Below are positions 3,552-23,751 of a DNA stretch of 24,232 bases, piece by piece. Numbering within the stretch: position 1 is the first letter of the stretch; every line of letters starts with the position of its first letter. The notes below the pieces were generated by a model, which saw only the letters and a program-made list of their open reading frames with translations, was not told the DNA's origin and ran no database searches. This DNA is from a virus, in the IMG/VR virus record IMGVR_UViG_3300047160_036265; one strand, written 5' to 3'. The translations under genes were made by a program, and so were the position numbers.

Positions 3552-3560
3552 ATTCCCTCA

Positions 3561-4448
3561 TCAAACGCAATTAGTGTACTGAACACGGCAGTCTGACTCT
3601 ATTGTAGAGTTCTCCTTCTCCGTAATCCTCACGGTCGAGGTAAACGGGCCAGATGCCGGCTTCGATCTTCTCAGCTTATTTATTGGCGTGATATAAGGGT
3701 TGTTAAACCTCGGCGCAGAAAACGCTCGTTCCTTGTGCCTGGCACGAATATTGACGACGAGACGCAGATCGCATTCCAACGATCCTTTGAAAAACACCAA
3801 GGTGCCGCCGGGGTAAATCCCGTGCGGAAGGGACTGCATATTCTCGATGGAGGGCCGGTCGTAGCGGAAGTAGTAATATCGTTCCGCCGACTTATGGTAT
3901 TGGGCCTTTTCGGCTGGGTAGCCGGTGATGCCGGCGCTTTCGATAACCCAGCCTTGGGATTGGTGGGCGGTCCAGTCCCACTCCTGGTCGTCATCGGGGA
4001 GAACAACCTGCACAGTCTGTTGTGGCTCAATTTTCAGCGCTTGGCCGCAAGGACTTATTGCTGTGAGGAGGTTTCCACGGTTAGTTGTGCAGGCCAGGAG
4101 GACACAAAGGGAGGAGAACTGAAAGCCAACGTCAAGCCCGATCTCACCTAGCAGAACGGCGGACCAGGCACTCCAGTCGGTGTAGTCCTCCTTCTGGCGA
4201 TAGATGTGCGCAGCCCCGTTGCGCAGGTGTTCCACCCGGTCAAGTATGAGGAAGTCAGTTCTTTCGACAATATGGCAAGAGGCGTACTCGTCGGTCAGAA
4301 CAACCGCTAATTCCTGGTTAGGATATAAGCGAATCAAATGGTTGTCTGCCCGTGGGTTCCTTATCCTCACCGGAGCGTATTTCTTCATGGCTTTCAACCA
4401 ACGCCGCCAGCCACCCAGAATAGTGCTGAACCAGCGCCAAAACTTCAT
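3561..4448 (-). CDS. hypothetical protein (295 aa; alternative start at 4388)
   Basis: This is a long ORF on the coding strand. It overlaps the upstream ORF by 70–130 nt, so the start is uncertain. Confidence 0.5.
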   Translation of the reverse strand: MKFWRWFSTILGGWRRWLKAMKKYAPVRIRNPRADNHLIRLYPNQELAVVLTDEYASCHIVERTDFLILDRVEHLRNGAAHIYRQKEDYTDWSAWSAVLLGEIGLDVGFQFSSLCVLLACTTNRGNLLTAISPCGQALKIEPQQTVQVVLPDDDQEWDWTAHQSQGWVIESAGITGYPAEKAQYHKSAERYYYFRYDRPSIENMQSLPHGIYPGGTLVFFKGSLECDLRLVVNIRARHKERAFSAPRFNNPYITPINKLRRSKPASGPFTSTVRITEKENSTIESDCRVQYTNCV

Positions 4449-5239: not shown

Positions 5240-5752
5240 TTAGGCCACTTCCTCGTACAAACGCTCTTTCGACCACTCGCCTCGAAGCTGTTCGTAGGAT
5301 TCTCCCAAAACCTGGCAAACACGGGCCTTGCTCAACCCCATTTCCACGCCGATCTCCTCCTGAGTTTTGTCTTCCAAGAAATAACCCCGGATCACAGCTT
5401 GGCGAGGCGGGGTTAGGCCCGGCAACACCAAGCCAAACAGTTCCGGCGAGTCGGCGGAAGGTGGGGCCGAAGGCTCATATTCCAGCGTTTTATGGGCCTG
5501 GGGAGCCTGTCGGGTTCCCCAGCCCAACTCCCGGAGGTAGTCCTGAATCGCCCCGTGGATGCGTATTTTTGCGTAGCCCTCGAAATTATCGCAGCGCTCC
5601 GGTTCGTACTTGTGGGCGGCGTCCACCAGGCCGAAATAAGCAGCGGATTGCAGTTCATCTAACTGGACGCTGCGAGGCAAACCTTTCTTTTTATAACCGG
5701 CGATTTTGTTGGCGAGAGGGAGATGAGATTCGATGAGTTCATTAGTTGTCAT
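5240..5752 (-). CDS. sigma-70 family RNA polymerase sigma factor (regions 2 and 4)
   Basis: The region 2 sequence (DELQSAAYFGLVDAAHKYEP) and the region 4.2 helix-turn-helix (TQEEIGVEMGLSKARVCQV) are both recognisable. Its size (170 aa) is typical of phage, ECF or FliA-like sigma factors. Confidence 0.8.
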   Translation of the reverse strand: MTTNELIESHLPLANKIAGYKKKGLPRSVQLDELQSAAYFGLVDAAHKYEPERCDNFEGYAKIRIHGAIQDYLRELGWGTRQAPQAHKTLEYEPSAPPSADSPELFGLVLPGLTPPRQAVIRGYFLEDKTQEEIGVEMGLSKARVCQVLGESYEQLRGEWSKERLYEEVA

Positions 5753-5885: not shown

Positions 5886-6830
5886 TCAAGCCGGCTGCGA
5901 GATGAATTTCAACATATTATTGGCCATGCTACCCCACGCCGAACCGCCGAAACGCAGGCATCGCTCCAAGAGCCAGATGCGGGTTTCGTGAAGACCGGGG
6001 CTGAAAATAAAGAAGTCCTCGTCGTGGCCAAGGCCACAGTAACGCAGGGCCTCAGCCACGTCAAGACACGGGCCTATATTTTCGGGCATGGGGCGGTCCT
6101 TGCAGTATTCCACAAGGTTGAGGAAGAAACGTATCCAGTTCTTGACATGGATGGGCAGGAACGTGCCTTCGGGCAGGCGAAGCTCAAGCGTCTTGCGACT
6201 CCAGCGCTTTCGTCGCAGCCCGGTAGCGTAATTCATGAAGTTGACGGCGACCCGCCGCTCCGGGTTTTCAAAAACGCAGATGTCCGCCGGGCATACCAGT
6301 TCCCACATCTCAAGGGCGGTATATCGGCCCTCCCGACTATCCAGGGGGAACACGCTGCGCAATGACCGGCAATAGGGGTTGCTGCTGCGATGGCGGGGCA
6401 CACAACCGAACAGAAAAGGCTCGATCTTGAGCCAGTGGGCGGCAAAAACCCCGACCTGAGCAGGTACAAAGTCGCTCACGTCGGCGTGGACGTGCAGGCC
6501 GCAGTTTTCATTGACCTGGACCCCATATTCATTCAACCGGCAGGCAACCTCGGAAATGTGAAAAATATCTGCCAGGCCGGCTGCCTTGTACGAGGCTACC
6601 TCGTAACCGTGGTCCAAACCCTTTCCCTTGGGACCGCAGGTGGAATCCGTCTTGATGTGCCAATGGCGGTTGCCGTGCGTTTGCCCCCAATCGGTAACTA
6701 CGGCGCTCCGGTGCGAATGCTTGATGACCACGCTCCATATTTCATGGCGAGTGATCGTATTACTGGCCTCAAGCTCTACCCCGAAAGGTCGAACCGAATC
6801 GAACTTCCGATATTTGGTCCCTCGGTACAT
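5886..6830 (-). CDS. amidoligase-family enzyme (putative amidoligase, glutamine-synthetase-like fold)
   Basis: The N-terminal FGVELE, the central WHIKTDSTCGP..GYEVAS and the CGLHVHADV motif match the Amidoligase_2 pattern. Confidence 0.65.
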   Translation of the reverse strand: MYRGTKYRKFDSVRPFGVELEASNTITRHEIWSVVIKHSHRSAVVTDWGQTHGNRHWHIKTDSTCGPKGKGLDHGYEVASYKAAGLADIFHISEVACRLNEYGVQVNENCGLHVHADVSDFVPAQVGVFAAHWLKIEPFLFGCVPRHRSSNPYCRSLRSVFPLDSREGRYTALEMWELVCPADICVFENPERRVAVNFMNYATGLRRKRWSRKTLELRLPEGTFLPIHVKNWIRFFLNLVEYCKDRPMPENIGPCLDVAEALRYCGLGHDEDFFIFSPGLHETRIWLLERCLRFGGSAWGSMANNMLKFISQPA

Positions 6831-7291: not shown

Positions 7292-7305
7292 CCTTTCTAA
7301 TTAAG
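7292..7305 (-). promoter_or_regulatory. recurring upstream element CTTAATTAGAAAGG (minus-strand sense), copy 1
   Basis: The same 14-mer recurs at ~17349–17362 upstream of GroES, and an 11-mer core AATTAGAAAGG lies at 2370–2380 upstream of the SIMPL gene. In each case it sits 5–9 nt before the ATG. Confidence 0.4.
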
Positions 7306-10195
7306 CTAGTATTATCGGGTTGGTTGTACTCGACGGCGCTGGCGGGAATATTGGGCTAATATCCTGCCGTGGCGTCTGTTGAGGATTCTCCAACGCTGAT
7401 ATATTAACGGCGAAGAGGGGGTTTTTGGCCCAATCGGGGGAAGTAAAAAGCTCCAGGTTGTCGTAAAGAAGGCTCAGGTCCACGCGCAGGTTGTGCTTGG
7501 TGATAAAGGTCAGATCGTTGACGTTGAATTTGAACCCGAAGTTCAACCCTTCCCCTGGCATATTGGCGTCGGCGCAGATGGTATCAGGCGGGAAGCCGGC
7601 GATCATCCGTGTCTCAAAAAACTCGCCACTGGCAGGATTCCGCCTGGTCACGAGGAAAGAAAACCGCCAGAGCGGGGAACCGATATGGAGGCCACCAAAA
7701 AAGTCGGTGCAGGCCCACTCGAACAATACCATCCACAAGTCCGGGGTGCCATCCCCGGCCACCCCTCGCAAGTGCGTGTTCGACAGATAGGATTTTGAGG
7801 TATTGCTGTAGAACAGCGTGACCGGGTTCGGCACCGTCAGGCCGTTGCGCACCAGGAAATTGGTGAGATTCACCGCCCGGCCCAAATCGTGGCTCACCTG
7901 GAGCTTGTACGGCAGGCCAAGGCAGCCACAATCGTTAGGCACGAAGGCCGTCACTGGTGGGATCAGCGGTGCCGGTGTGCCGTTGTAAACCGGCTCCATG
8001 CTCACCAGCGTTCCATGACCACCCCACATGGAAATATATTGGGCTTTCACAGCCAGGGTCGGCTGCCCAAAGGCGTTCCCCCCAAAGAATGATGGCGGGG
8101 CGATTCTAGGCGTCACCTGGGCCGTCCCAAAGGTTTCTGCGGAGGGTATACCCGTAGGATTGACGTTGTAATCCACCAACGGCGTAACCTTCGTCTTGGC
8201 TTTTTTGGTAGGGGGACCAATACTCGCCGTGCCACCCATCTTCAGATCGCTGTGCTTCGCTCCCTTTGAACCTCTTTCCGGGGTGTATTGCCGGCCAGAA
8301 CGTAACCTGGCGGAACCGCCCAGGCGGATGGTTCCGGTGGCTTTCCCCCGGTAACTGGTGGAGACGGCCTCCGTAGCCCCAGCGAAATGGATTGGCCCGC
8401 CACCCTCATATTGCTGGTGAGAGGACTTCACTTTTGAGTCACCCCCGACAAGGAGGTTGACAGGCCCCTGGCCGTCAGGGATGTACTGATAATGGGAGGA
8501 CCGGGCCTTGGCGCGACCACCAAACTTCACACCACCCTGAGCATCCTGAGCGAATGCCGTGGCGACAGCAGCGCTGGGTATTCTAAAAGCAATGGCGCTG
8601 CCGCTCAGATGGATGTTGCCAGAGCCGGTATAACTCAAGAAGGTGTCGATGACCGTCATCGCCATTCCCATGCCGATGCGGGCATTGGTTTGCAAACAAA
8701 ACTGCTTGCAATTCGCTGTCTGGCAGAAGGGCACGTCCGTTAAGGTATTGCAGTTGGTATCAATCAGGCCAGCGTCCTGTTGCTGCTGGGCGATGACAGG
8801 ATTCACCGGCACGGAGAACTTGCTCATCCTTGAGATTTGCCAGACAAAACCAGTTTGGGCGACTTTGAGGCAGGCGTCATCCGGCGTTGTGGCCGGGACA
8901 ACCTGGACGGTGAATTGGGGGCATTGCTGGTCGATGGGTCGTCCCGACTGGTTCATGATTGGCGGCATCCCGCTCGTGTCCAGCGGCGCTGTCGGGCAGC
9001 CCGCAGTCGGCGTGTCGCACAACCCCTCGATCCGAAACCAGTACAGCGGGAGATGGCCAATGTTATATTCCACGTTGAGAGACACGTCGAAGGAGGCATT
9101 GACGTTGTACAAGACGGGGAGAGTGACACCCCACTGGACGCGCACCCCTGCCGTGCCGCCCGTGTGGGTCGTTCCCGCACCCGTGTATGTATATTGCTGA
9201 ACAGCATGGGGAATGCCAAAATGCTCCCCGCTGGGAATGCCGGGAGGGGACACAATAACGCCCACGAAAAGCGTGGCTGTAGCTCCCACAGTAGAACCAG
9301 CGACCAACGAGGCAGAGGCAGCGTAGATGGCTTTTGCCTTCGCTGCCTGGGAGGATACGGCGGACAAATTCGCTGCCGCCTGGTGAGTAACCCCAGGCTG
9401 GCTAATCAACGAGGCGCTACCCTGGATGTTGCTTGCCCCAACGATAATCTTGGGCATCACCAGGAAATAAGTCCTGATGGGTTGCGGTGGGGCGATAAAG
9501 GCATAGGGATTGGTATAAAGGTGCAATATTTCAATCGGGTTGAGCGCCCGATTGTATATCATGCAGTTGTCAATTTGTCCGTTGAACGAACTGCTTCCTA
9601 TTCCATGTCCGTTGCCAACCCCACAGAAAGATAGGTAGTCATCCTCGAATGCCGTCACGCCCGGCGCTGCCGTGGTTGCTGAGCGGATGCCATCAACATA
9701 GACGGAAACCGTTTGAGCCACGGCATCATATACGCCCACCACTTGATGCCACACCCCGTCGTTGACAGATTGGGTACTGGTAGCGGTTTTGGCCCCGCCC
9801 AACCAGACCATGAAACTGACCTGCCCACCGCTTTGCAATTGAAGGCCAAGTTCCTGTGTAGTACCGTTATACATGAGGAGCCAAGGAGCCGCCCCTCCCA
9901 CACTGGTCTTCACCCACATGAAGAAGGTCTTGCTGCTGGGTGTCGTGTAAAAACCTGTTGGGATCGTGACGTAGGTGCAGGTCAAGGCCGGACCTAACTT
10001 GCCCGCAGCCCAGGTGGGGCCGGTGATTATCCCGTTGAACGATTTTTCCGAGAGGTCAGTGAGGGTTGTGCCGCCGCCCTCGTTGAAAAGCCAGCAGCCT
10101 ACCAGACCGCTGGCAAGATCGTGGCCACGGAGTATCTGTGCGCCGAGCGGGGGTTTGATTTGACCGTATTTGCGATAGGGAGGACAGGCGAGCAT
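7301..10195 (-). CDS. tail fibre / baseplate protein with N-terminal Laminin-G_3 (ConA-like lectin) domain
   Basis: The N-terminal LamG signature is present (W.FNEGGGTTLTDLS..NGIITGPTWAAGKLG.AL......VWHQVVGVYDA..QTVSVYVDG). The remaining ~700 aa are G/T/S/A-rich with a fibre-like composition. Confidence 0.75.
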   Translation of the reverse strand: MLACPPYRKYGQIKPPLGAQILRGHDLASGLVGCWLFNEGGGTTLTDLSEKSFNGIITGPTWAAGKLGPALTCTYVTIPTGFYTTPSSKTFFMWVKTSVGGAAPWLLMYNGTTQELGLQLQSGGQVSFMVWLGGAKTATSTQSVNDGVWHQVVGVYDAVAQTVSVYVDGIRSATTAAPGVTAFEDDYLSFCGVGNGHGIGSSSFNGQIDNCMIYNRALNPIEILHLYTNPYAFIAPPQPIRTYFLVMPKIIVGASNIQGSASLISQPGVTHQAAANLSAVSSQAAKAKAIYAASASLVAGSTVGATATLFVGVIVSPPGIPSGEHFGIPHAVQQYTYTGAGTTHTGGTAGVRVQWGVTLPVLYNVNASFDVSLNVEYNIGHLPLYWFRIEGLCDTPTAGCPTAPLDTSGMPPIMNQSGRPIDQQCPQFTVQVVPATTPDDACLKVAQTGFVWQISRMSKFSVPVNPVIAQQQQDAGLIDTNCNTLTDVPFCQTANCKQFCLQTNARIGMGMAMTVIDTFLSYTGSGNIHLSGSAIAFRIPSAAVATAFAQDAQGGVKFGGRAKARSSHYQYIPDGQGPVNLLVGGDSKVKSSHQQYEGGGPIHFAGATEAVSTSYRGKATGTIRLGGSARLRSGRQYTPERGSKGAKHSDLKMGGTASIGPPTKKAKTKVTPLVDYNVNPTGIPSAETFGTAQVTPRIAPPSFFGGNAFGQPTLAVKAQYISMWGGHGTLVSMEPVYNGTPAPLIPPVTAFVPNDCGCLGLPYKLQVSHDLGRAVNLTNFLVRNGLTVPNPVTLFYSNTSKSYLSNTHLRGVAGDGTPDLWMVLFEWACTDFFGGLHIGSPLWRFSFLVTRRNPASGEFFETRMIAGFPPDTICADANMPGEGLNFGFKFNVNDLTFITKHNLRVDLSLLYDNLELFTSPDWAKNPLFAVNISALENPQQTPRQDISPIFPPAPSSTTNPIILA

Positions 10196-11127: not shown

Positions 11128-11862
11128 TTATGCGTCCAGCTTTTCCAGAATTGCGCCGACCAAGGGGTGGCGAACAATAGAGGAAGGCCCAAACGTCACC
11201 ACGCCGACGCCCGGCACGGCCTCCAGGCGGGCCACCACGTCCATCAGCCCAATCTCCTGGGTCCGCAGGTCGCTTTGGCTGGGATCGCCGGTTACAATAA
11301 TCTTGCTGTTGGCCCCGAAGCGACTCAGGAAGAGCTTTAGCTGCATTTTGGTGGCATTCTGCGCCTCATCAAAGATGCACACGGCATTGTCAAACGTGCG
11401 ACCCCGCATGTACGCGATGGGGGCAACTTCAATACAGCGATTCAATATATCCCGCTGTGGACCTTCCCGACCGCAGAGCTTGTCGATGCAGTCATAAAGG
11501 GGCAACATATAGGGATTCACCTTTTCATCGAAGGTTCCTGGGAGGAACCCCAGGCTTTCGCCGGCTTCCACGATGGGGCGGGTCAGGATGATCTTCTTGC
11601 GGGACTTGGACAGAACCTCGTTGATGGCAAAGGCGGCTGCCAGGTGCGTCTTGCCGCAGCCCGCCGGCCCCAGCAGGAACAGAACGTCGTGTTGCTCGAA
11701 GCCGGCCCAGGCTAGTTTTTGTGATGAGTTCAAGAATTCCAGGTGAAAGGAGCGCTTGGTGGGACTGGTTGATTTGACCATGAGTTTATGTAGTACGAGC
11801 GGCGCATAAAATGCCCCTGCATCTGGTGATGCAGGGGCAATCTCCAGGGGCCGAATCGACAT
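11128..11862 (-). CDS. phoH: PhoH-like ATPase
   Basis: The Walker A motif is GPAGCGKT, and FLPG, AYMRGRT and IIVTGDPSQ(S)D are also present. The ORF track starts at a TTG at 11868, and the first ATG is at 11862. Confidence 0.9.
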   Translation of the reverse strand: MSIRPLEIAPASPDAGAFYAPLVLHKLMVKSTSPTKRSFHLEFLNSSQKLAWAGFEQHDVLFLLGPAGCGKTHLAAAFAINEVLSKSRKKIILTRPIVEAGESLGFLPGTFDEKVNPYMLPLYDCIDKLCGREGPQRDILNRCIEVAPIAYMRGRTFDNAVCIFDEAQNATKMQLKLFLSRFGANSKIIVTGDPSQSDLRTQEIGLMDVVARLEAVPGVGVVTFGPSSIVRHPLVGAILEKLDA

Positions 11863-11868
11863 CCACAA

Positions 11869-12261: not shown

Positions 12262-12789
12262 ATGGTATTATATACGGGACAGGGAAATAATCTTGGTTCC
12301 CCGCTACATAACTTCATGAACTTCAGGCAGTTTTTCCAAGAGGCCGAAGAAGAGGACAAAAACGTGCAGGCCATGCTCAAAAAGCTACCCGCTGCCCATC
12401 GGGCGCTCCTGAACGGCTTCAAGTTCAAGTACCTCGGCGGCAATACCTTGAACGGCGACGACGAGCATATCGGCGTCATTGACAAGGACAAGATCACCGT
12501 CGCCGCCCCCTGGAACTACGGGCGGGAGTTCACCACTCTGCACGAAATTGCCCACATGATCTATGAAAAGATGTGTTCCAAACCGTGGAAAGAAGCCTGG
12601 AGCCAGGCCGTCAAAAAGCACCCCGACCGCCAGAAGCAGAACGACGAGGAATTATGGTGCATGGCTTACGCCAACCACTTCGCCAAACACAAGAACCTCA
12701 CCCACCACCACCCGGCGTGGGAAGCCTACATGAACAAATTCTGCAAGGAAACCGGCAGCGGGGAACATCATCACGAAGACGAGGACTAA
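12262..12789 (+). CDS. putative zinc metallopeptidase (HExxH) with His-rich C-terminal tail
   Basis: An HEIAH motif is present (TTLHEIAHMIYE) and the C-terminus is HHHPAWEAYMNKFCKETGSGEHHHEDED. It is one of only two plus-strand genes, and its stop overlaps the stop of the convergent GT2 gene (CTAA). The start is uncertain, with an alternative ATG at 12316. Confidence 0.55.
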   Translation: MVLYTGQGNNLGSPLHNFMNFRQFFQEAEEEDKNVQAMLKKLPAAHRALLNGFKFKYLGGNTLNGDDEHIGVIDKDKITVAAPWNYGREFTTLHEIAHMIYEKMCSKPWKEAWSQAVKKHPDRQKQNDEELWCMAYANHFAKHKNLTHHHPAWEAYMNKFCKETGSGEHHHEDED

Positions 12790-13547
12790 ATCGCCTGGGT
12801 CTGTGTCTCCCGAATCAACTTGGGGATTGCCACCATCGCCTGCTCGGTAAGTCGTTCATATTCATTGATGTCCAGGCTGAAGACCCGGTAATGATGGGCA
12901 ATGGGGTTGCGCATTATCTGCGGTTTGACGCCCTTGGCCTGGGCACGCAGAGTCATGACGAAAGCATGGCCGATTTGTGGCAGTATCTCCGGCCAGGGGC
13001 CTATATCCTTCCAACCCTGGCGCGTAATTAGCATCAACCACTCCTGAATGAAGTCAATTTTCTGGTTCTGCATGTAGTAGGACAATTGATCGACCCCAAC
13101 CATGTGGGAGCCTTGGGATTCGGAGACATTGATGAGAAGGTCGAGCCAGGCAGGATTCAGAATAACCACGTCGGGGTGCATAAACACGAAATACTTGCTG
13201 GCCTTGTCCGCCGCCGCTATACCCTTGTTGGCGGCTGCCGACCAGTAGAGGTTCTTGTCGTTCCTGATAACCTTGACTTCCCCCTCGATGTCATCGAGGA
13301 AGTCCTGGGTATCCTTGCCGGAACCGTTGTCTACCACTATGATTTCGTAGTTATTGTTGAAAGATGTGACCGCAATGCTCTGCAAGCAAATATTGAGGTA
13401 TTCGGGCCGATCCTTATGAACCACGATGATGGAAACCTGTTCGTCGCTGCCGTCGTGGAGATTAACCACGAACTCCGGTCGTTCTCCCTCTAGGGGGTTG
13501 TGGGCCAGCCTGGATGGATCATGAGGAGTTAAATCCTTTGTTGCCAT
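12786..13547 (-). CDS. family 2 glycosyltransferase (GT-A fold)
   Basis: VSIIVVHKDRPEYLNICLQSI…YEIIVVDNGSGKDT fits the GT2 N-terminal pattern including the DxD region. A strong Shine-Dalgarno (AAGGAGAG) precedes the ATG. Confidence 0.8.
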   Translation of the reverse strand: MATKDLTPHDPSRLAHNPLEGERPEFVVNLHDGSDEQVSIIVVHKDRPEYLNICLQSIAVTSFNNNYEIIVVDNGSGKDTQDFLDDIEGEVKVIRNDKNLYWSAAANKGIAAADKASKYFVFMHPDVVILNPAWLDLLINVSESQGSHMVGVDQLSYYMQNQKIDFIQEWLMLITRQGWKDIGPWPEILPQIGHAFVMTLRAQAKGVKPQIMRNPIAHHYRVFSLDINEYERLTEQAMVAIPKLIRETQTQAI

Positions 13548-15089: not shown

Positions 15090-15119
15090 ATTTTGAATCC
15101 TATGGCTAAATAACAGAGT

Positions 15120-15488: not shown

Positions 15489-15509
15489 TCCCTGCATTAT
15501 ATATCAGTC

Positions 15510-15959: not shown

Positions 15960-15962
15960 ATG

Positions 15963-17018
15963 TTATATTCCCATCTTTTTGGCAAAGTCTTGGCGCTTCG
16001 GGGTCACATGATCCTTCTCAAGCCCCCGCAACTTATTTAGCACGTCCAGATAATCTGGACACAATTCAACGGGCGACTCCACCTTCACCGTGGCGACAAT
16101 ATCGCCCATGTGCAATGGACTGCGGATGTCAGGCAAACCCCGGCCCTTCAAGCGGAAGCGAGTGCCCGTTTGCGTTCCTGCGGGAATCTTTACCTTGATG
16201 CCGGCATCCAGCGTCGGCAACTCGATCTCGTCCCCCAGAACGACCTGGGTGTAGGAAACCGGGATGTCGCAGAACAAATCCCGGCCCTCACGTTTGAAGA
16301 TGGGATGTTCCTTGATGAGAACGACTACAAAGAGGTCGCCCGTGCGGCTGCCGATCTTGCCGTCCTCACCCTCGCCAGCCACCCGGACTTGCATTCCGTT
16401 GTCGATGCCCTGGGGGATTTGAATATCCAGGGCCTTCTCAACAAAGCCGCCAAAGCCAGCGCCGGCGCACTCTTCACAGCGGTCAATATGCGACTTGCCG
16501 CTGCCCTTGCAGACGGTGCATTGCATGGTGAACTGGAAGGGGGAACTGTCGATCTTGGCCCCGAACCCCGAACCGCCACAGGCCGGGCAGGCAACAAAAC
16601 TGCTATAGCCCTTGCCCTCGCAGGCATAACAGCGCTGACGCTTCTTGACGACGATGCGACGGGTGCAGCCCTTAATAATATCCATGAGGTCTACTTCGAC
16701 CCGAACCTGGATATTTCGGCCTCTTGCCTCGCCACCCCCAAAGAACTCCTCGAATATGCTTGTAAAGTCCTGAGCGGGTCGCCTCCTGCGACCCCGTGGT
16801 TGCGCATGGTGAGCGGTCCTGCCGTCGTAGTGAGAACGGTTGATCGGGTCGGTCAAGACATCGTAGGCTTCCTGAACCCTCTTAAACTGTTCCTCAGCGC
16901 TTTTATCACCTGGGTTGCGGTCGGGGTGATACTTTAGTGCGTTGCGACGATAGGCTTTCTTGATTTCCTCATCCGTGGCGGTGCGTGGTACACCCAAAGT
17001 CTCATAGTAATCCATCAC
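15963..17018 (-). CDS. dnaJ: molecular chaperone DnaJ (type I: J domain, G/F region, 4x CxxCxGxG zinc finger, C-terminal domain)
   Basis: The J domain is YYETLGV…[10 protein letters not shown], and the zinc-finger repeats are [24 protein letters not shown] and CEECAGAG. The track starts at GTG (17018), and the ATG at 17015 overlaps the GroES stop (TGATG). Confidence 0.9.
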
Positions 17019-17344
17019 TCCTCAACAAGAACGGCCTTGATGCTGTGCGGCTCCATGAGAACCCGTTCGCGTTCGATCTTGTCGTAGTTGGGAGTCGGCA
17101 CACCGCCGCCCGAAACCACCACCCGGTCGCCCACGTCGAAGCCCCAATCCTCTTTCTTGAGGGACGGGCCGACCGCACGCACATAACCCTGGTACTCCAG
17201 ACCGTCACGCTTGTTGCCGACGCTGAAGCGGGTATTCAGAAGCTCCTGCTGTGTCAGAAGCTCGACCAAAACCTGAGAGCCACATGGCTTGATGTCCCTG
17301 ATATAAGGGACGAGAGGTTCGTCACTGCCGATGATCTTTGACAT
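17015..17344 (-). CDS. groES: GroES/Cpn10-like co-chaperonin (110 aa from internal ATG of the 147-aa ORF)
   Basis: [20 protein letters not shown]…GYVRAVGPS…[10 protein letters not shown]…[17 protein letters not shown] aligns with GroES, including the mobile-loop region. It is translationally coupled to dnaJ, and the conserved AATTAGAAAGG motif lies upstream. Confidence 0.65.
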
Positions 17345-17358
17345 ACTTTCCTTTCTAA

Positions 17359-17748
17359 TTAAGTTGTTTGCGCATCGTTCAGTTGAAACGTATGCCCTGA
17401 ACTGGCCTGAATCTGGATTCCGGCCCCCTGCAATGTCATGCCGTCCGCCGAATGCCATGTTACCAGGCTGGGTTCATAGCCAATGCCACTTATCATGCTC
17501 GTCGTAGCGATCATGCTGGGCGATACATTGGTCTGCAAACCCTCCGGGTAGGGCGTATACCTCATGCCCGGCGGCGTCTTGGGAACCTTGGCCGCTTGTT
17601 CAGCAACATACTCATCAACAATCTTGGCCACTGTGGAATCGCACAAATCGGCGTACCCAAAGCAGCCTTCCTCGTAGGCCCGCTTCAAGAGGGCCACGAG
17701 ATCATCCTTCTCTATATAAACCAACACACTGTCAATTTCCATGTTCAT
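17359..17748 (-). CDS. hypothetical protein (129 aa)
   Basis: This ATG ORF has a GGAG upstream and a 17-nt overlap with the stop of the ALDH fragment. Confidence 0.45.
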   Translation of the reverse strand: MNMEIDSVLVYIEKDDLVALLKRAYEEGCFGYADLCDSTVAKIVDEYVAEQAAKVPKTPPGMRYTPYPEGLQTNVSPSMIATTSMISGIGYEPSLVTWHSADGMTLQGAGIQIQASSGHTFQLNDAQTT

Positions 17749-18490
17749 TATTTAAGCTCCAACGCTTTGCTGACCTTACGATGACATCGCAGGTCTTGTG
17801 CCGAGAGTCGGCACACACTCGGCAGATGGAGCGGCCTACCTCAGCACTGCCGGTAAAATAAATGTGGTCCACGTTATCCAGGGCAAGGGCATGGCCGACT
17901 TCGCCATTGCCGTGAATCATGTTGAAGACGCCTGGGGGAAAACCGGCCTCATTATAAAGCTCAGCTATCATTTGCCCGGTCACGGGCGTTTCCTCACTCG
18001 GCTTGAATATTACCGTGTTGCCCTCCACAAGAGCAGGAGCAACACCACAAGCACCACCAATAGCAAACGGATAATTCCAAGGAGCAATAATCGCCACGGC
18101 ACCTTTGGGTTTTCGGAAGACATACGCACCACGCTCCGCAAAATCTCGGCCCTTGCCAAACGAGAACTTCATCAAGTGCAATGCCTCGGTGACTTCGGTT
18201 TTACTTTCATTCAGGTTCCTGCCCGTTTCCAGGGAGATTGCCTTGACGATCTTATCGAAATCCCGTTTGACCAATTGGGCCAGGGTAACAAAGTATTCAG
18301 CCCGTTTCACCCGGTTGACTTCGTGCCATTTGGGAAAGGCCCGGCGTGCGGCAGCCACCGCTTCCGCCACTTCCTCCGACGTGGATGATGGGAACAGGCC
18401 GATTTCTTCCTCGGTGGCGGGGTTGCGGGAGGGGAAGTCCGGGCGGTGGGGGCAGAAGTCACCGTCAATATAATTCATGCCCACATACAT
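17732..18490 (-). pseudogene. aldehyde dehydrogenase (ALDH superfamily) N-terminal/NAD-binding half only, lacking the catalytic half
   Basis: From MYVGMNYIDGDF the sequence matches ALDH (NPATEE.IG, PWNYPF, GNTVIFKPSEETP, GFPPGVFN, FTGSAEVGR). Homology ends right after FTGS, well before the catalytic Cys/Glu and the ELGGK motif. The 88 codons the track places upstream lack homology. Confidence 0.55.
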
Positions 18491-18500
18491 GCGTTTCCCC

Positions 18501-18839
18501 CTACATGCTAAAACTTGAACCGCAACCGCAGGTCGTCTTGGCGTTGGGGTTCTCGAACTTGAAACCACGCTTATCCAGGGTTTCCACGAAGTCAATGACG
18601 GTGCCTGGGAGATACATGGCGGAACGCTTGTCGATAGCGAATTGCAGGCCATTGATCTCCTCAACCGTGTCCACTTTTTCGTTGAAGTTCTCATCCAGGT
18701 TGAAGGCCCACTGGAAACCGCTGCATCCGCCACCACGAACGCCCACCCGCACATAAGTGGTCTTCGGGTCCATGTTCTGATCTTCCATAATGCGCTTGAT
18801 CTCGGCGGCAGCCGTATCGGTGAGAGTAACTGTAGCCAT
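18501..18839 (-). CDS. A-type iron-sulfur cluster carrier (IscA/ErpA/HesB family)
   Basis: The protein is 112 aa with the conserved Cys triad (…GGGCSGF… and C-terminal CGCGSSF). A strong AGGAGG Shine-Dalgarno lies 5 nt upstream. Confidence 0.85.
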   Translation of the reverse strand: MATVTLTDTAAAEIKRIMEDQNMDPKTTYVRVGVRGGGCSGFQWAFNLDENFNEKVDTVEEINGLQFAIDKRSAMYLPGTVIDFVETLDKRGFKFENPNAKTTCGCGSSFSM

Positions 18840-18860
18840 ATTGCCTCCTGAAATATTCTA

Positions 18861-20069
18861 TCACGCCCAATAACCTATGAAATAGCACTTGCCGTCTTTC
18901 TCGCCCACGATAACAGGAGTGATACACCGTTTCTTTATAAGAGTTAGGTCCAACGCTTTCTTGGCCTCCTCGATGCTATCGAAAGACAAGATGTTTCCGT
19001 TATCGTCCACGAACCGTGGGTCTTTCTTGGGATACGCCACGCCCGGCACAATGACGCCATAATGGTCAAACACCGGCTTGCCATTGGCATCCGGGAAGTT
19101 TTCCGTCAGGTCGATAATTTCCTTCACCGTCTGGGAAGCGGCAGGCCAGAACTCATGGAGGGGGTACACGCGAGGTTCATAGAGCAAGGGCGTGGGTTCG
19201 GGGTGCCGCAACACCAAGCCGCCACCCTCGACAAAGAAGTTGTATCCCTTGAAGTGACGAGGTTCGACCACAATACGATATTCCCTGGCGTTGGAGAACT
19301 CGGCCAGCAAAAATGGCTGGTGCATATTGTAGTCCAGGCTCTTGGCCAATATGACCGCTGCACTCGTCATTGTCACCCGGTTAAAGCCATAATAGCTCTC
19401 GTCCACCTGCTGGCGGAAGGCTTCCACCGTCTTCATGATTTCGGAGTGCATGTCGGTGAGGCCCAGGTCCAGATAACGCTTGGCCTTCTTCTCGACCCTC
19501 GCCAGTTCATCCTGGTACGCCATGTCGTAGCGGATGAACTTACTGAAGCTGGAGGGTTGTGCGGACCAGACCTCATCACCCTTCTTGCACAGGCTCCGCA
19601 GGTCAATACATTGCATTCGCTTCCTGTTACGAACCTTCTCCCGGTCTTCGGGGGCCTTGAGAAAGCGGACGTGCAGGCGATTGACGAAGGGGCTGTCGAT
19701 GCGGCGCAGAACGTCCTTGGGCAGTTCTTTGGATAAGACCTTCCAGAGAAAAGGCCCAACGGAGTTATAACGCTCGCGTTCGCAATACTCGGCCACCACC
19801 AGCAACTCCTCGCACTCGTTGGCGAAAGCGCTATCAAAGGCCAGCCAACCGTCAAAGGCGGTTCCCAGGTCAGGGTGGGTGAAATCCACCACCGTGGTGA
19901 AAGCGTGCAACTTGCCGAACAGGGAACCCAGGGCGTGTTCGCCCCGTTCCTCCGGGCAGGCCGCTATCGCAGCCATAACCCGATGGGCTTCTTTTGATGG
20001 CACTGCGCCCTCGCGTCTCGTACCAAGCCTCCTGAGTATTTCCTTGTTAAGCTCCCTTGCATCGTCCAT
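18861..20069 (-). CDS. hypothetical protein (402 aa)
   Basis: This long ATG ORF overlaps the IF3 stop by 23 nt and has no recognisable motif. Confidence 0.55.
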   Translation of the reverse strand: MDDARELNKEILRRLGTRREGAVPSKEAHRVMAAIAACPEERGEHALGSLFGKLHAFTTVVDFTHPDLGTAFDGWLAFDSAFANECEELLVVAEYCERERYNSVGPFLWKVLSKELPKDVLRRIDSPFVNRLHVRFLKAPEDREKVRNRKRMQCIDLRSLCKKGDEVWSAQPSSFSKFIRYDMAYQDELARVEKKAKRYLDLGLTDMHSEIMKTVEAFRQQVDESYYGFNRVTMTSAAVILAKSLDYNMHQPFLLAEFSNAREYRIVVEPRHFKGYNFFVEGGGLVLRHPEPTPLLYEPRVYPLHEFWPAASQTVKEIIDLTENFPDANGKPVFDHYGVIVPGVAYPKKDPRFVDDNGNILSFDSIEEAKKALDLTLIKKRCITPVIVGEKDGKCYFIGYWA

Positions 20070-20595
20070 TTTCTACTTCCTGCCTCGGTATTATACGACA
20101 GACCAACTTGTTCCCTTCTATTTTAGGCGGGCGTTCTGCCGCAGCTATGTCCTTCAGGTCAGCCAATATCTTATTGACGACGTTAAACCCCTGTTCCTTG
20201 TGGGCAATTTCCCGATTCTTATATTGCAAATTCAACTGGACCAGATTGCCCTTTTCCAAGAAAGCACGCGCCGCCTTGGACTTGGTTTGAATATCATGGT
20301 CGGCAATCGCAGGCCGCAGACGAATCTCCTTGATCTGCACGCTCGCCTCACGCTGTTTGCGTTCCTGTTCCTTCCGCTTTATCTTCTGTTCGTATCTAAA
20401 CTTGCCATAGTCCATAATGGAACAGACCGGGGGGTTGGCGTGGGCAGCGATCTCCACCAAGTCGAGGCCCGCATCCTGCGCTATCCTTCGTGCTTTGTCA
20501 ATGGGCATAATACCAAGTTGGTTGCCGTCTTGTGTTACCCGAACGACGGCGGCACGAATTTGGAAATTCACACGGGCATATTTATTCTGTTGCAT
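20047..20595 (-). CDS. infC: translation initiation factor IF-3
   Basis: The N-domain (RVNFQIRAAVVRVTQDGNQLGI…AQDAGLDLVEIAA.ANPPVCSIMDYGKFRYEQ) and the C-domain (IKEIRLRPAIADHDIQTK…FLEKGN.V…REIAHKEQG) match bacterial IF3 along its length. Its ATG overlaps the decarboxylase stop (TAATG). Confidence 0.85.
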   Translation of the reverse strand: MQQNKYARVNFQIRAAVVRVTQDGNQLGIMPIDKARRIAQDAGLDLVEIAAHANPPVCSIMDYGKFRYEQKIKRKEQERKQREASVQIKEIRLRPAIADHDIQTKSKAARAFLEKGNLVQLNLQYKNREIAHKEQGFNVVNKILADLKDIAAAERPPKIEGNKLVCRIIPRQEVENGRCKGA

Positions 20596-22232
20596 TATTT
20601 GACTCTCTTAGCGTAAGTTTCTGCTAATCTCCTTAAAGCATTGGAAGTGTCCTTCTGATCTACGACAACATTTATCACACATAAAGTGTCGCCGGCCAAA
20701 GCTTCACGGACGGCTATATCAAGCTCGCCCTCGGTTTCCACCCGGAAGCCCTTGCCTCCACCGATCACATCAGTGATCTTGTGGTAATTCCAGTCACGAA
20801 TATTGTTGAAGGGACCGTCGAGCATGGCCCGTTCGGTCGCATAACCCTTGTTATTGAGTACAAACACTATCGGCTTGAGCTTATGCTCCAGTATGGTACT
20901 AAGCTCGGTGCAGGTCATCTGAAAGGCCCCATCCCCCACCAGCACAATCGGGCGCACGTCGGGCTTGGCCAGGGCCACGGCCAGAGCGCCAGGAATGGCG
21001 AAACCCATGCTGCTGTAGAAGGCGGGGCACATAAAGCAGTGCTGAGAGACAGCCAACTGGAACGCCCCAAACAAGCTCTCGCCAATGTCGGCCACGATGG
21101 CAAAGTCGGGCTTGGCCAGCAGGGAATTGATCTTGTCCACAAAGCGGGCAATTGTCAGTTTCGCCTCGGCAACCGCTGTATATTTCTCGGTCGGCTTGGT
21201 CACATAGCTGGGGATAGGGTGCTTGTGCAGGTCGGCCTTGAACAGCGTATTGCAAAAGTCCCGGAAGCGCACCTGCTTGAAGGTGTGGTTCTTGATTTTC
21301 AAGCCCTCGACGGAGCAGGAAATGACGTTGCTGGGGTCGAACCGCACCGGCGAAAAACCGCACATCAGGTCCGTCACCATCTCGCCCAGGATCAGGATGC
21401 AGTCCGAGTTTTCAACGTACTCCTTGACCACATCACTGCTCATGGTCCCGGCATAAACACCCAGGAAAAGGCGATGCTTTTCGTCCACCACGCTCTTGCT
21501 GAGCAACGTAGTGGCCACCGGAATGCCATGCTTGTCGGCAAAGCGGATCAACTCGTTGCCCAGGTTGAAGCGTGACACCTGGACACCGGCCAGAATGATC
21601 GGTTTCTTGGCGTCGTCCAGCCAGGTGAAAACTTCCTTCAGGGCTTCGCGCAGACTGATGGGGTCCGTTTCGGGGGCGGTGGGCGTACCCTGATGATACA
21701 CGTCGTATTTGATGGGCTTGTGGGCCACGTCCCTGGGCAGTTCAATGTAAACAGGCTGCTTGTGGTGGTGCAACTTCTCCAGGGCCATGTCAATCTTGTA
21801 GCCGGCGGTCTGGGCGTCATCGAGGACCACGGAGCAGCAGGTTATATTTTCAAAAATCTTGAGTTGGTTGTCAAAGCTGCGAACCATGTGGTGCAGCATA
21901 AAGCCTTCGTCGCGCTCCTTGACCCCTGGCGAACCACTTATCAAGAGGACCGGCGACTTCTCGGCATAGGCACCGGCGATGGCATTGCACAGTTTCAAGG
22001 CACCGACGTTGTAGGTGGTCACGACGCAGCCCAGGCCCGTGATGCGGGCGTAGGCGTCGGCGGCGAAGCCGGCGTGACTCTCATCGGTATTGTTGATGAG
22101 CTTGATCTTCTTGCTCTCGGAGAGCTTCTTGAGGAAATGAAGGATGTAGTCGCCTGGAACTGTGAAGGTATGCTTGAGTCCGGCGTTTTCTAACCTTTCC
22201 ACCAAGAAATCGGTAACGCTTGGCATGTTCAC
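20595..22232 (-). CDS. thiamine-diphosphate-dependent 2-keto-acid decarboxylase (pyruvate/indolepyruvate decarboxylase family)
   Basis: The sequence aligns with PDC/IPDC over its full length. The N-terminal Pyr domain is FTVPGDYILHFL, and the TPP-binding motif is GDGAFQMTCTELSTILEHKLKPIVFVLNNKGYATER. The track begins at GTG (22232) and the first ATG is at 22226. Confidence 0.9.
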   Translation of the reverse strand: MNMPSVTDFLVERLENAGLKHTFTVPGDYILHFLKKLSESKKIKLINNTDESHAGFAADAYARITGLGCVVTTYNVGALKLCNAIAGAYAEKSPVLLISGSPGVKERDEGFMLHHMVRSFDNQLKIFENITCCSVVLDDAQTAGYKIDMALEKLHHHKQPVYIELPRDVAHKPIKYDVYHQGTPTAPETDPISLREALKEVFTWLDDAKKPIILAGVQVSRFNLGNELIRFADKHGIPVATTLLSKSVVDEKHRLFLGVYAGTMSSDVVKEYVENSDCILILGEMVTDLMCGFSPVRFDPSNVISCSVEGLKIKNHTFKQVRFRDFCNTLFKADLHKHPIPSYVTKPTEKYTAVAEAKLTIARFVDKINSLLAKPDFAIVADIGESLFGAFQLAVSQHCFMCPAFYSSMGFAIPGALAVALAKPDVRPIVLVGDGAFQMTCTELSTILEHKLKPIVFVLNNKGYATERAMLDGPFNNIRDWNYHKITDVIGGGKGFRVETEGELDIAVREALAGDTLCVINVVVDQKDTSNALRRLAETYAKRVK

Positions 22233-22237
22233 CCTAC

Positions 22238-23239
22238 CTATTTAGGCGTTGAAAGTAGCACCTGGCCGGGTGCAATTTCTTTGTTTGGATAGGGTTGCGG
22301 CACCGTACCGCCAGGGTCCATTGCGTGCTGGCATTCGGTGACTATATATGGCGGGCGAACCGCCCTCGGTACATCGTCTTCCGGGCAATTAGGTTCATCG
22401 CCAAGGTGGTCCTCCTCCGGCGGGGGAAGCGGCGGGGCCGGTGGGATGGACGGGGGCCACTGATACTCAATCGTCGGAGAATCCACGATCTGAATAACAT
22501 AACCCTCGTTGTTGACCGGATACCGGCGCATCCACTCCACCCCCGGCACCGGCGCGCACCCGTAATCGGCGGGCGTGAGGGTGGTAAAGCTCGGAATTAC
22601 GCTGTCCGACACATCGTAGAGCGTCGGTTGAGACAGCATCTTGATGAGTTTGAACTCAAACTGGTAGCAACCAGGAAGGCAAACCTCCCCGGCCTGCCAG
22701 TGGTAGACCAGGAGGCTTTCCATCACGACATTCTTGCGCACCGTACCGTCGATCTCGGTGATGTCCTGCACAACCATCTGTGATTCGGCGGGGGCGTTCA
22801 TCAGCTTGATGATGCGCATGGCCGTGCCCTTCTTCCAGTTAGATACAAACGTGCCGTTGTAGCCCCGCTGGACCTGGACAAAGCGGTTATCCTCATCAAA
22901 CCCCGTCACCAACATATGCTCCGGCAAACGTGTCCTATCCATGATGATTATATCACCAACCATCATCTGCTCAAACCCAATATCGTCCGCAACCTGGAAA
23001 TATGTGTCGGTCGTGGACATATTTTTCTTGAGCTTCGCCTTGGCCCACATGCTGGCCTCGACAATAAGGCCGGTGAGGTCGATGGGACCGTCGCAATCTT
23101 CGACGGAGACTTTGAACGGAGGCTCGGTGTCGTTTCGCTTGAGGGTGAAATCAGGGCAGACGCCTGGGCAACAACCGAACTTGTCACAGCAGGTGGGGCT
23201 GGTAGAACATCCTTTTCCAAAACTGGTTGCACATGCCAT
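22238..23239 (-). CDS. hypothetical protein with N-terminal Cys cluster and Pro-rich C-terminus
   Basis: The N-terminus is CATSFGKGCSTSPTCCDKFGCCPGVCPDF and the C-terminus contains PPSIPPAPPLPPPEE. The ORF extends to an ATG at 23395, but that would overlap the dCMP deaminase by 139 nt, so the internal ATG at 23239 was chosen. Confidence 0.5.
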   Translation of the reverse strand: MACATSFGKGCSTSPTCCDKFGCCPGVCPDFTLKRNDTEPPFKVSVEDCDGPIDLTGLIVEASMWAKAKLKKNMSTTDTYFQVADDIGFEQMMVGDIIIMDRTRLPEHMLVTGFDEDNRFVQVQRGYNGTFVSNWKKGTAMRIIKLMNAPAESQMVVQDITEIDGTVRKNVVMESLLVYHWQAGEVCLPGCYQFEFKLIKMLSQPTLYDVSDSVIPSFTTLTPADYGCAPVPGVEWMRRYPVNNEGYVIQIVDSPTIEYQWPPSIPPAPPLPPPEEDHLGDEPNCPEDDVPRAVRPPYIVTECQHAMDPGGTVPQPYPNKEIAPGQVLLSTPK

Positions 23240-23256
23240 ATCGTTATATAGAGGAG

Positions 23257-23751
23257 CTACCCGAAAAGTCCTCGTACTTCCAAAGACTTCATCTGATCCC
23301 GCAGCCAATTCAGGTCGCCCTTGAATTCGTCCAGTTGCATATAACTCATGCGCATGACCTCCTGCACCTTGACCCAATCCGCCGTTTCCGGGCATTTACC
23401 GTTGAACACCACCCGTTTGATGCCCAGGTGCAGGGCCTCGCACACGCACTTGAGGCAAGGCCGATTCGAGACGTACAGGACGCCGCTGCCCAGAGGGAAG
23501 CGGGCCATGTGCAGAGCCTCAACCTCCGCATGAATTACAGCCTCGTCGTCCCAACCATCATTAAGGTCCGCCAAGGGCGCAGGCATGGAATCGGTGCCGA
23601 AAGCGAAATGACGCCCGTTGCAGTCCGTGACCAGGGCACCGACTGGCTGATGCGGGTTTCGTGAACCAAAAGCGATGAGATGAGCCAAGCCCATGAAATA
23701 GTCGTCACGGGGCATAACTTCCCGCAGTGGCCGGCGTTTCCTCTTATCCAT
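23257..23751 (-). CDS. dCMP deaminase (cytidine/deoxycytidylate deaminase zinc-binding family)
   Basis: The zinc-binding motifs HAEVEAL and PCLKCVCEALHLGIKRVVF (H(A/C)E … PCxxC) are present, in a T4 Cd-like size. Confidence 0.85.
   Translation of the reverse strand: MDKRKRRPLREVMPRDDYFMGLAHLIAFGSRNPHQPVGALVTDCNGRHFAFGTDSMPAPLADLNDGWDDEAVIHAEVEALHMARFPLGSGVLYVSNRPCLKCVCEALHLGIKRVVFNGKCPETADWVKVQEVMRMSYMQLDEFKGDLNWLRDQMKSLEVRGLFG

Follow-up and report, generated by a model that had tools for sequence, protein, structure and literature searches.

What does a bacteriophage do with a 2-oxo-acid decarboxylase, and why does the gene for it end where the gene for translation initiation factor IF3 begins? 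The question is raised by IMG/VR virus record IMGVR_UViG_3300047160_036265, a stretch of 24,232 nucleotides that we analysed at its full length and refer to as the window. On its minus strand a putative decarboxylase gene, here called kdc, overlaps an infC homologue. We consider it probable that the two genes form a conserved expression unit of huge phages, in which a captured cellular 2-oxo-acid decarboxylase and a phage IF3 would be made together and the enzyme would convert a hydrophobic 2-oxo acid into an aldehyde. The pair and its junction lie as follows:

20595..22226, minus strand: kdc, putative thiamine pyrophosphate (TPP)/Mg2+-dependent 2-oxo-acid decarboxylase, 543 aa; alternative GTG start at 22232
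20047..20595, minus strand: infC, encoding IF3 of 182 aa with IF3_N and IF3_C domains; ATG start
20593..20597, minus strand: TAATG stop/start overlap of kdc and infC, with a Shine-Dalgarno-like AAGAGAG run just before it

A first-pass annotation, made from the letters of the window, had placed the two open reading frames (ORFs) at 20595..22232 and 20047..20595, both on the minus strand, and had described their overlap as TAATG; the coordinates are exact and the overlap is correct. On the coding strand the junction reads ...AAGAGAGTCAAATAATGCAACAG, with one base common to the TAA of kdc and the ATG of infC. The GTG-started kdc ORF, 20595..22232(-), encodes 545 aa and stands as an ORF, but 22232 is not the likely start of the protein: close homologues begin MPSV... 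and are 541-546 aa long, and the ATG at 22226 is therefore almost certainly the real start, giving 543 aa (as in P0001). Residue numbers of the decarboxylase follow the 545-aa GTG numbering throughout; 2 has to be subtracted for the ATG start. A stop codon in the infC frame lies 4 codons 5' of the infC ATG, which is therefore its sole canonical start.

In the survey of junctions, which covered 33 phage loci, kdc and infC overlap (TAATG, TGATG or ATGA) in about half of the independent phage lineages; the spacer is at most 18 nt in most of the non-overlapping lineages, and gaps of ~100-300 nt occur in only three. The decarboxylase has a conserved C-terminus (..LSKRV in most of the phage clade described below), and its codons form AAGAGAG-type purine runs 8-14 nt upstream of the infC start (20598..20612 in the window, coding strand ...AAGAGAGTC AAA TAA), and the same bases may double as the IF3 Shine-Dalgarno sequence. 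We infer that co-transcription and translational coupling of kdc and infC are likely.

The 182-aa protein matches both Pfam domains of IF3 (IF3_N, 1.2e-28; IF3_C, 2.6e-27), scores 172.5 bits with the infC model TIGR00168 (equivalog cutoff 60) and aligns with residues 12-178 of E. coli IF3 (8jsg, 9.6e-40), including the basic KEQ..KQ linker. The description of the gene as a bona fide infC homologue that starts with ATG rather than AUU thus holds on both counts. The infC gene of E. coli uses an AUU (or similar) start for autoregulation and lies in a thrS-infC-rpmI-rplT operon. Neither feature is found in the window, where the start is ATG and the flanking genes are kdc and the gene for a protein that we call Y; AUU-based autoregulation therefore cannot apply. 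ATG is the start in nearly all relatives with a callable infC start, the few exceptions being GTG or TTG candidates, and the ratio of nonsynonymous to synonymous substitution rates (dN/dS) of infC is 0.076.

The enzyme and its active site

The kdc product matches TPP_enzyme_N, TPP_enzyme_M and TPP_enzyme_C of Pfam (1.8e-29, 8.9e-25 and 1.4e-25, all above the gathering cutoffs) in a single chain of ~550 aa that aligns end to end with pyruvate decarboxylase (PDC) and KivD, as in the three-domain (N/M/C) family of PDC, indolepyruvate decarboxylase (IPDC) and KdcA. Its matches in the PDB are decarboxylases (PDC, KdcA/KivD, IPDC and phenylpyruvate decarboxylase, PPDC) at 1e-64 to 3.5e-84, with the best acetolactate synthase at 9e-34. 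The top match is the reconstructed ancestral PDC ANC27 (5npu, 3.5e-84), several bacterial PDCs come next, and identity to KivD and to the ancestral PDC is ~32-33%. The highest-scoring curated models are those of IPDC in NCBIfam, TIGR03394 (342 bits, 5.4e-102) and TIGR03393 (310 bits, 2.5e-92); acetolactate synthase models score at most 209 bits.

The cofactor motif GDG433-435...NN460-461 (GDG-X24-NN) is present and falls within the GDG-X(24-27)-NN spacing. Alignment to KivD and ANC27 identified D28, E51, H114, H115 and E467, the equivalents of Asp27, Glu50, His113, His114 and Glu473 of Zymomonas mobilis PDC (ZmPDC). These five residues are invariant in an alignment of 73 sequences of the phage clade, together with T466, R468, G433, D434, G435 and N461; N460 is nearly invariant. 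The gene is under strong purifying selection: comparison with a 96%-identical relative gives a dN/dS of 0.033, below that of the five other block genes compared.

The first-pass annotation had proposed a complete PDC/IPDC-family decarboxylase with an intact GDG...NN motif, a proposal that would have failed had the catalytic residues been lost or had the protein grouped with acetolactate synthases. All catalytic and cofactor residues are there, and the protein groups with PDC, KdcA and IPDC. The sought assignment to a substrate clade came out in part: the family is clear, and the substrate class is not given by the models, as no equivalog cutoff is reached. We regard the kdc product as a functional-looking member of the PDC/IPDC/KdcA family that is predicted to be catalytically competent and that belongs to an uncharacterised subfamily.

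A gene block of huge phages

A megablast search of the whole window against INPHARED gave no match. At the protein level, the best phage match for both genes is LR756511.1 (decarboxylase 52.5% and IF3 53.1% identity), listed as SR-VP_PHAGE_COMPLETE_CIR-CU-CL_42_23, a complete, circular and curated genome of 595,163 bp from vernal-pool mud (Al-Shayeb et al. 2020, supplement). Six window proteins, including X, the decarboxylase, IF3, Y, a HesB-like protein and an aldehyde dehydrogenase (ALDH), are collinear with this genome at 28-53% identity, so that gene content and gene order are shared with a complete curated huge phage. These proteins belong to a block with the following further members:

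23257..23751, minus strand: dCMP/cytidine deaminase (dCMP_cyt_deam_1, 2e-11); upstream block boundary, position conserved in relatives
22238..23239, minus strand: protein X, ~333 aa from an ATG at 23239 (a 385-aa ORF from 23395 is over-called)
18861..20069, minus strand: protein Y, 402 aa; overlaps the 3' end of the IF3 gene by 23 nt; clade-specific orphan
18501..18839, minus strand: A-type Fe-S cluster carrier (HesB/IscA/ErpA-like), 112 aa, TIGR00049 114 bits (cutoff 58.8); between Y and ALDH
17732..18490, minus strand: truncated ALDH, N-terminal 252 aa, Aldedh profile positions 8-229 of 461
17015..17458, minus strand: weak Cpn10-like ORF; precedes DnaJ
15963..17018, minus strand: DnaJ, full-length, with J, CXXCXGXG (zinc-finger) and C-terminal domains; downstream block landmark

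The block was also found in close relatives from soil metagenomes, with decarboxylases 96-100% identical to that of the window, and in one 71%-identical relative. Three contigs, of 299 kb, 602,679 bp and 673,178 bp, have it together with genes for ribosomal protein S21, peptide deformylase or both, and a scan with the clade alignment as query gave 22 contigs of IMG/VR, the longest of 572 kb. A 669,797-bp contig encodes a protein 100% identical to protein Y of the window, and roughly half of the ORFs screened in the window match neither Pfam nor PHROGs. The window comes from the genome of a huge bacteriophage, and genomes of the clade measure about 0.6-0.67 Mb. The concern that it might be a segment of a bacterial chromosome does not apply, given the synteny with LR756511.1, the IMG/VR contigs and the contigs of 0.3-0.67 Mb.

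The conserved order is dCMP deaminase, X, kdc, infC, Y, HesB, ALDH (a remnant in the window), two small ORFs and DnaJ. We tabulated all fetched loci by tblastn, 33 of phage type and 78 cellular. X lies directly upstream and IF3 directly downstream of the decarboxylase in 33/33 phage-type loci, X adjoining kdc in every such locus that retains the upstream flank; IF3 also follows a kdc-type ORF in three further contigs (L134-L136). Y is present in 31/33 phage-type loci, the HesB-like carrier in 21/33, ALDH in 20/33 and a downstream DnaJ in nearly all. Next to the 78 cellular homologues, neither IF3 nor X nor Y was found. From X to the ALDH remnant the coding strand has no terminator-like site, and a promoter/terminator scan of 15000-24232 gave matches at chance level.

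The cellular homologues are 43-48% identical, the great majority of them from Planctomycetota (among these the isolate Aquisphaera insulae) and a few from Nitrospira, and the phage decarboxylases form an essentially monophyletic clade in a neighbour-joining tree. That the nearest cellular members are in Planctomycetota and Nitrospira suggests an ancient capture of kdc from a cell. Planctomycetota are candidates for its donor or for the phage host. Recent horizontal transfer as a passenger gene was considered and rejected, in view of an unremarkable GC content, the monophyly of the phage clade and the strong purifying selection. The gene had been called very unusual for a phage. It is rare in cultured phages, but it is no one-off, as the pair recurs in related phage contigs, where the first-pass annotation had suggested looking for it, across a widespread clade of huge phages, and PHROGs already holds a TPP-enzyme family for it, phrog_11199, of unknown function.

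Close copies occur in only two GTDB records, contigs of metagenome-assembled genomes (MAGs) that also carry the complete phage block, L052 (CALFYV010000090.1, 546 kb, 'Bacteriovoracaceae') and L053 (JAYVUD010000189.1, 'Chloracidobacterium'); since their taxonomic labels are unrelated, they are almost certainly mis-binned huge-phage DNA. A homologue named Thorarchaeota in NCBI (P0086), 57% identical to the window enzyme and placed among the phage-clade matches, may be another such case. An IMG/VR group at 32-35% identity (L029-L051) was considered as a second phage lineage and rejected, as L040 is bacterial, with DnaK, DnaJ, thiolase, FadB, phosphoribosyl pyrophosphate synthetase, dihydroorotate dehydrogenase and PanD.

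Protein X has a Cys-rich N-terminus, a beta-rich core and a Pro-rich tail; it was rejected as a pathway enzyme (aminotransferase or similar), since it folds like virion beta-domains. The AlphaFold model of protein Y is very confident (pLDDT 89.7), and Y has no structural relative in the PDB or BFVD and no Pfam or PHROG match. A role as a pathway enzyme was ruled out for lack of a structural relative, and the model presents Y as a clade-specific orphan fold. Relatives of the HesB-like protein match Fe-S_biosyn of Pfam.

The ALDH remnant ends with ...KTCDVIVRSAKRWSLNNEHGN and a stop codon where phage ALDHs of 487/502 aa have KTCSCEMGSKS...GQRC, and it has neither the catalytic Glu (ELGGK-type motif) nor the Cys nucleophile. 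The listed ORF, 17732..18754, is called too long on the 5' side, where it runs into the HesB gene. The closest relatives, with TPP proteins 96-100% identical, share the truncation, which is therefore no sequencing error; distant relatives have full-length enzymes of 487-502 aa. With a dN/dS of 0.16, the remnant may keep some function, for example nucleotide binding. The full-length phage ALDH subfamily has generic matches only, all below the equivalog cutoffs.

Substrate, mechanism and rival readings

ZmPDC has a small pocket closed by Tyr290, Trp392 and Ile472, which restricts the substrate to pyruvate. The kdc product has L289 and L387 at the positions aligned with Tyr290 and Trp392 (Y and W also in ANC27), and across the phage clade position 289 is Leu or Met and position 387 is Leu. 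At the position of Ile472 (Ile/Val next to the catalytic Glu) stands the invariant T466, and at that of KivD Q377 stands I383, Ile or Val in the clade. F388, T466, M470, L536 and Y540 further line the pocket, which, with the variants of the clade, consists of L/M289, I383, L387, F388, T466, M/L470, L/M536 and L/Y540. A pocket that has neither the Tyr/Trp pair of PDC nor a Gln at the KivD Q377 position argues for a hydrophobic 2-oxo acid larger than pyruvate as the most likely substrate, with branched-chain or aromatic acids, as in the Ehrlich pathway, as likely candidates. Read from the residues, the pocket lends no support to an indolepyruvate-specific enzyme and argues against a pyruvate-specific one. 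Phosphonopyruvate and sulfopyruvate decarboxylases were also considered and are not supported, no such model being among the best 25 NCBIfam matches listed; a paper on phosphonates employed huge phages merely as a set to search. The neighbours of the 78 cellular homologues gave no clue to the substrate, nothing being conserved beyond tmk/holB in ~10 loci.

We propose that the enzyme would act non-oxidatively, with TPP and Mg2+, and convert a 2-oxo acid into the corresponding aldehyde and CO2 in the infected cell. The downstream ALDH of many relatives would oxidise the aldehyde to the acid and yield NAD(P)H; the phage of the window would have lost this step, and its pathway would stop at the aldehyde or leave it to enzymes of the host. 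Ribosomes terminating on kdc at the TAATG would probably translate infC, so that both proteins would be made together, and the phage IF3 would join host 30S subunits. We infer the activity, the substrate class, the coupling and the physiological benefit of the pair.

Several observations weigh against this proposal. The kdc product reaches no NCBIfam equivalog cutoff (TIGR03394, 342.3 against 554.5; TIGR03393, 310.3 against 946), the reading of the pocket is based on alignment to two structures, and the trees are neighbour-joining trees only. The ALDH is truncated in the phage of the window and absent from ~40% of the relatives. There is no terminase, major capsid or portal gene within the 24-kb window, whose phage identity is based on synteny and on the virion-like matches of X and of a 964-aa Laminin_G protein. 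The whole region of ~20 kb is collinear in the clade, and the adjacency of kdc and infC may reflect general synteny rather than a functional tie. Finally, relatives whose decarboxylase is degenerate, and which adjoin IF3 all the same, suggest that catalysis is dispensable in part of the clade.

Such degenerate copies were found in two divergent IMG/VR lineages, L023/L024 (51% identity) and L027/L045 (46%), as intact ORFs at the same position in which key motifs are lost: PGDY is changed to QGPY or SRQD, GDG to SED or DEN, and the NN...GYTTER loop is deleted or truncated. An exhaustive search of representatives at 50% identity, in which the whole active phage clade is one cluster, showed that nine of the next representatives (41-50% identity; P0330, P0332, P0335, P0336, P0337, P0338, P0340, P0341 and P0345) are degenerate in the same motifs. 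The losses affect GDG/NN, the catalytic Glu loop, D28 or the HH pair. IF3 follows P0340, P0336 and P0338 in a typical phage block, directly or after a 73-aa ORF, and on all contigs that extend far enough (five lineages) the degenerate copy adjoins IF3. In the neighbour-joining tree the degenerate copies branch within the phage clade at two or three positions. Either catalysis was thus lost several times, or a single ancient loss was followed by long retention; in both cases the ORF has kept its place upstream of IF3. Three explanations are possible: a dispensable enzyme that is slowly decaying, an ORF that stays open because translating it drives the synthesis of IF3, or a second, catalysis-independent role of the protein. 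The copy in the window is clearly of the active, strongly constrained type.

The third of these explanations can be extended to the whole clade. The TPP-fold protein would then have a conserved role tied to IF3 and translation, as a partner, a scaffold or a TPP/2-oxo-acid sensor, for example one that links the metabolic state of the cell to translation initiation, and decarboxylation would be ancestral or secondary. Such a primary role as partner or regulator of the phage IF3 would explain both the stop-start fusion across the clade and the dead full-length copies upstream of IF3. No phage locus examined has given up the adjacency to IF3, even where catalytic motifs are lost; the dead copies, at their separate places in the tree, are still full-length ORFs with a recognisable fold and 44-51% identity to the active form; and many genes for translation and proteostasis lie nearby (S21, peptide deformylase, IF3, DnaJ and the Cpn10-like ORF). 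However, all catalytic residues are invariant in 73/73 sampled sequences of the main clade, with a dN/dS of 0.03, and selection for catalysis is the simplest explanation. Adjacency alone is weak evidence in a region that is collinear throughout, and the dead copies may be decaying slowly, kept open only to drive coupled IF3 translation. We know of no interaction between a TPP enzyme and IF3, and we judge a primary role of this kind unlikely.

We think it quite unlikely that the enzyme is a specific indole-3-pyruvate or phenylpyruvate decarboxylase that, with ALDH, makes indole-3-acetic or phenylacetic acid. The best NCBIfam model, TIGR03394, is indeed one for indolepyruvate/phenylpyruvate decarboxylase, and a full-length ALDH follows in many relatives, as in an auxin-type pathway; the scores nevertheless lie far below the equivalog cutoffs given above. 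Homologues carry the JGI label 'indolepyruvate decarboxylase', but automatic names are not evidence for the activity. Ile or Val at the position aligned with KivD Q377, which we take to be that of Gln383 of Enterobacter cloacae IPDC, thought to contact indole, speaks against IPDC/PPDC specificity, as do the truncated ALDH of the window and the generic character of the ALDH subfamily. Three relatives have, 6-9 kb upstream of the decarboxylase and outside the window, a gene of the indoleamine-2,3-dioxygenase (IDO) family (PF01231, tryptophan-dioxygenase-like), which may point to tryptophan/indole metabolism or be unrelated:

L007, 881..2029: IDO-family gene
L008, 3137..4303: IDO-family gene
L012, about 3243..4358: IDO-family gene

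That the enzyme is a pyruvate decarboxylase producing acetaldehyde, which ALDH would turn into acetate, in a pyruvate dehydrogenase bypass or a fermentative redox takeover, is a very unlikely reading. It would fit the ancestral and bacterial PDCs at the top of the PDB matches and the identical catalytic apparatus, but KivD/KdcA score almost as high as PDC, and the replacement of Tyr290 and Trp392 by Leu/Met289 and Leu387 throughout the clade, with the invariant Thr at the Ile472 position, argues against it. That the segment is cellular, from a bacterial chromosome or a reduced-genome symbiont, and the pair an ordinary bacterial operon can be dismissed as extremely improbable: the two GTDB MAGs, the Thorarchaeota homologue and the lack of a terminase or capsid gene in the window stand against synteny with a complete circular curated phage genome and IMG/VR viral contigs, the many ORFs without Pfam or PHROG match, the virion-like fold of X, the absence of IF3, X and Y beside 78/78 genuinely cellular homologues, and MAG labels as mutually inconsistent as expected of mis-binned phage contigs. 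The coupled production of a 2-oxo-acid decarboxylase and IF3 in a huge phage remains our preferred reading.

Other genes of the window and comparison with known systems

The remainder of the window encodes a dUTPase and the following proteins:

87..1115, minus strand: sugar-nucleotide epimerase/dehydratase
1643..2362, minus strand: SIMPL/DUF541 protein
2375..2893, minus strand: GNAT acetyltransferase
5240..5752, minus strand: sigma-70 family factor (regions 2 and 4)
5886..6830, minus strand: Amidoligase_2 enzyme
7301..10195, minus strand: Laminin_G/ConA-like protein, 964 aa, with virion-structural PHROG matches
11128..11868, minus strand: PhoH
12786..13547, minus strand: family-2 glycosyltransferase

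The epimerase/dehydratase, SIMPL/DUF541, GNAT and glycosyltransferase genes may be tied to glycan or cell-surface modification. Scans for tRNA genes and Rfam families found nothing in the window. Genes for translation and proteostasis are abundant around the pair, with IF3, DnaJ and the Cpn10-like ORF in the window and S21 and peptide deformylase upstream in relatives. The first-pass annotation had spoken of a structural/replication context, which does not describe the neighbourhood well: it is auxiliary, with chaperones, nucleotide metabolism, a sigma factor and PhoH, and has two virion-like proteins. The PhoH gene of the relative L135 (8890..9860) is split by a LAGLIDADG_3 domain within a 588-aa product that has PhoH sequence on both sides, which suggests an intein or an in-frame homing-endonuclease insertion.

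Huge phages are known for translation genes and assorted metabolic genes, and the presence of IF3 in jumbo and huge phages and of this decarboxylase gene in a public huge-phage genome is not new. Al-Shayeb et al. (2020) mention IF3 in huge phages and no such decarboxylase. Our literature searches for phage TPP, indolepyruvate or keto-acid decarboxylases returned nothing relevant, and the phage 2-oxo-acid decarboxylase, its linkage to IF3 and its pseudo-enzyme derivatives appear undescribed in the searchable literature. The clade of phages that bear the gene is globally distributed, and characterising kdc would give a function to thousands of environmental sequences and show which keto-acid pool is tapped. 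The dead copies repeatedly kept next to IF3 offer a natural experiment on a second, translation-linked role, and the block reliably flags huge-phage contigs that were mis-binned into MAGs.

Complete two-domain IF3s of bacterial type are likewise found in other very large phages, namely Agrobacterium phage Atu_ph07, the Cronobacter phage GAP32 group, Sinorhizobium phage Phosso and LR7565xx genomes (Al-Shayeb et al. 2020; Iyer 2021). These are only 30-41% identical to the window IF3, with the exception of LR756511.1 (53.1%), which is also the only INPHARED genome with the kdc-infC pair; the other phages with IF3 were not found to have a decarboxylase upstream.

Among characterised enzymes, KdcA/KivD of Lactococcus lactis (PDB 2VBF, 9MSA, 6VGS) has the same full-length three-domain PYR/R/PP architecture (E about 1e-81, 32% identity). 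Its D26, E49, H112, H113 and E462 correspond to D28, E51, H114, H115 and E467 of the phage enzyme, the GDG..NN motif and Phe382 (F388 in the phage protein) are common to both, and its pocket is likewise fairly open and hydrophobic. The pocket residues differ: S286 is replaced by L/M289, F381 by L387, V461 by T466, I465 by M/L470, M538 by L/M536, F542 by Y/L540 and Q377 by I383. Unlike KdcA/KivD, the enzyme described here is phage-encoded, linked to IF3 and known from its sequence. The bacterial PDCs (Z. mobilis, Acetobacter pasteurianus and ANC27, 5NPU) are the best-scoring solved relatives, with 33% identity and identical catalytic residues, but the phage enzyme does not have the pocket-closing Tyr290 and Trp392 and has Thr for Ile472, and a pyruvate-specific enzyme is therefore unlikely. 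IPDC and PPDC (TIGR03394/TIGR03393; PDB 1OVM, 2NXW) match at 5.5e-69 to 9e-72; the phage enzyme differs from them in scores well below their equivalog cutoffs and in the Ile at the KivD Q377 position.

The closest cellular counterparts are the 'alpha-keto acid decarboxylase family' proteins of Planctomycetota and Nitrospira (for example that of Aquisphaera insulae JC669, L094), which have T466-E467-R468, L387 and F388 in common with the phage proteins. An enzyme subfamily with an invariant Thr beside the catalytic Glu is thus common to phages, Planctomycetota and Nitrospira. The cellular genes stand alone, never beside IF3, X or Y, whereas the phage proteins form a clade of their own.

Two-enzyme bypasses combine a 2-oxo-acid decarboxylase with an aldehyde or semialdehyde dehydrogenase, as in the cyanobacterial 2-oxoglutarate decarboxylase/succinate semialdehyde dehydrogenase route and the Ehrlich pathway. 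Where relatives carry kdc and a full-length ALDH, the block resembles such a bypass, a CoA-independent oxidative decarboxylation that would yield NAD(P)H. It differs from these bypasses in its predicted hydrophobic pocket, which offers no basic residue to a distal carboxylate, and in an ALDH that is optional in the clade and truncated in the window.

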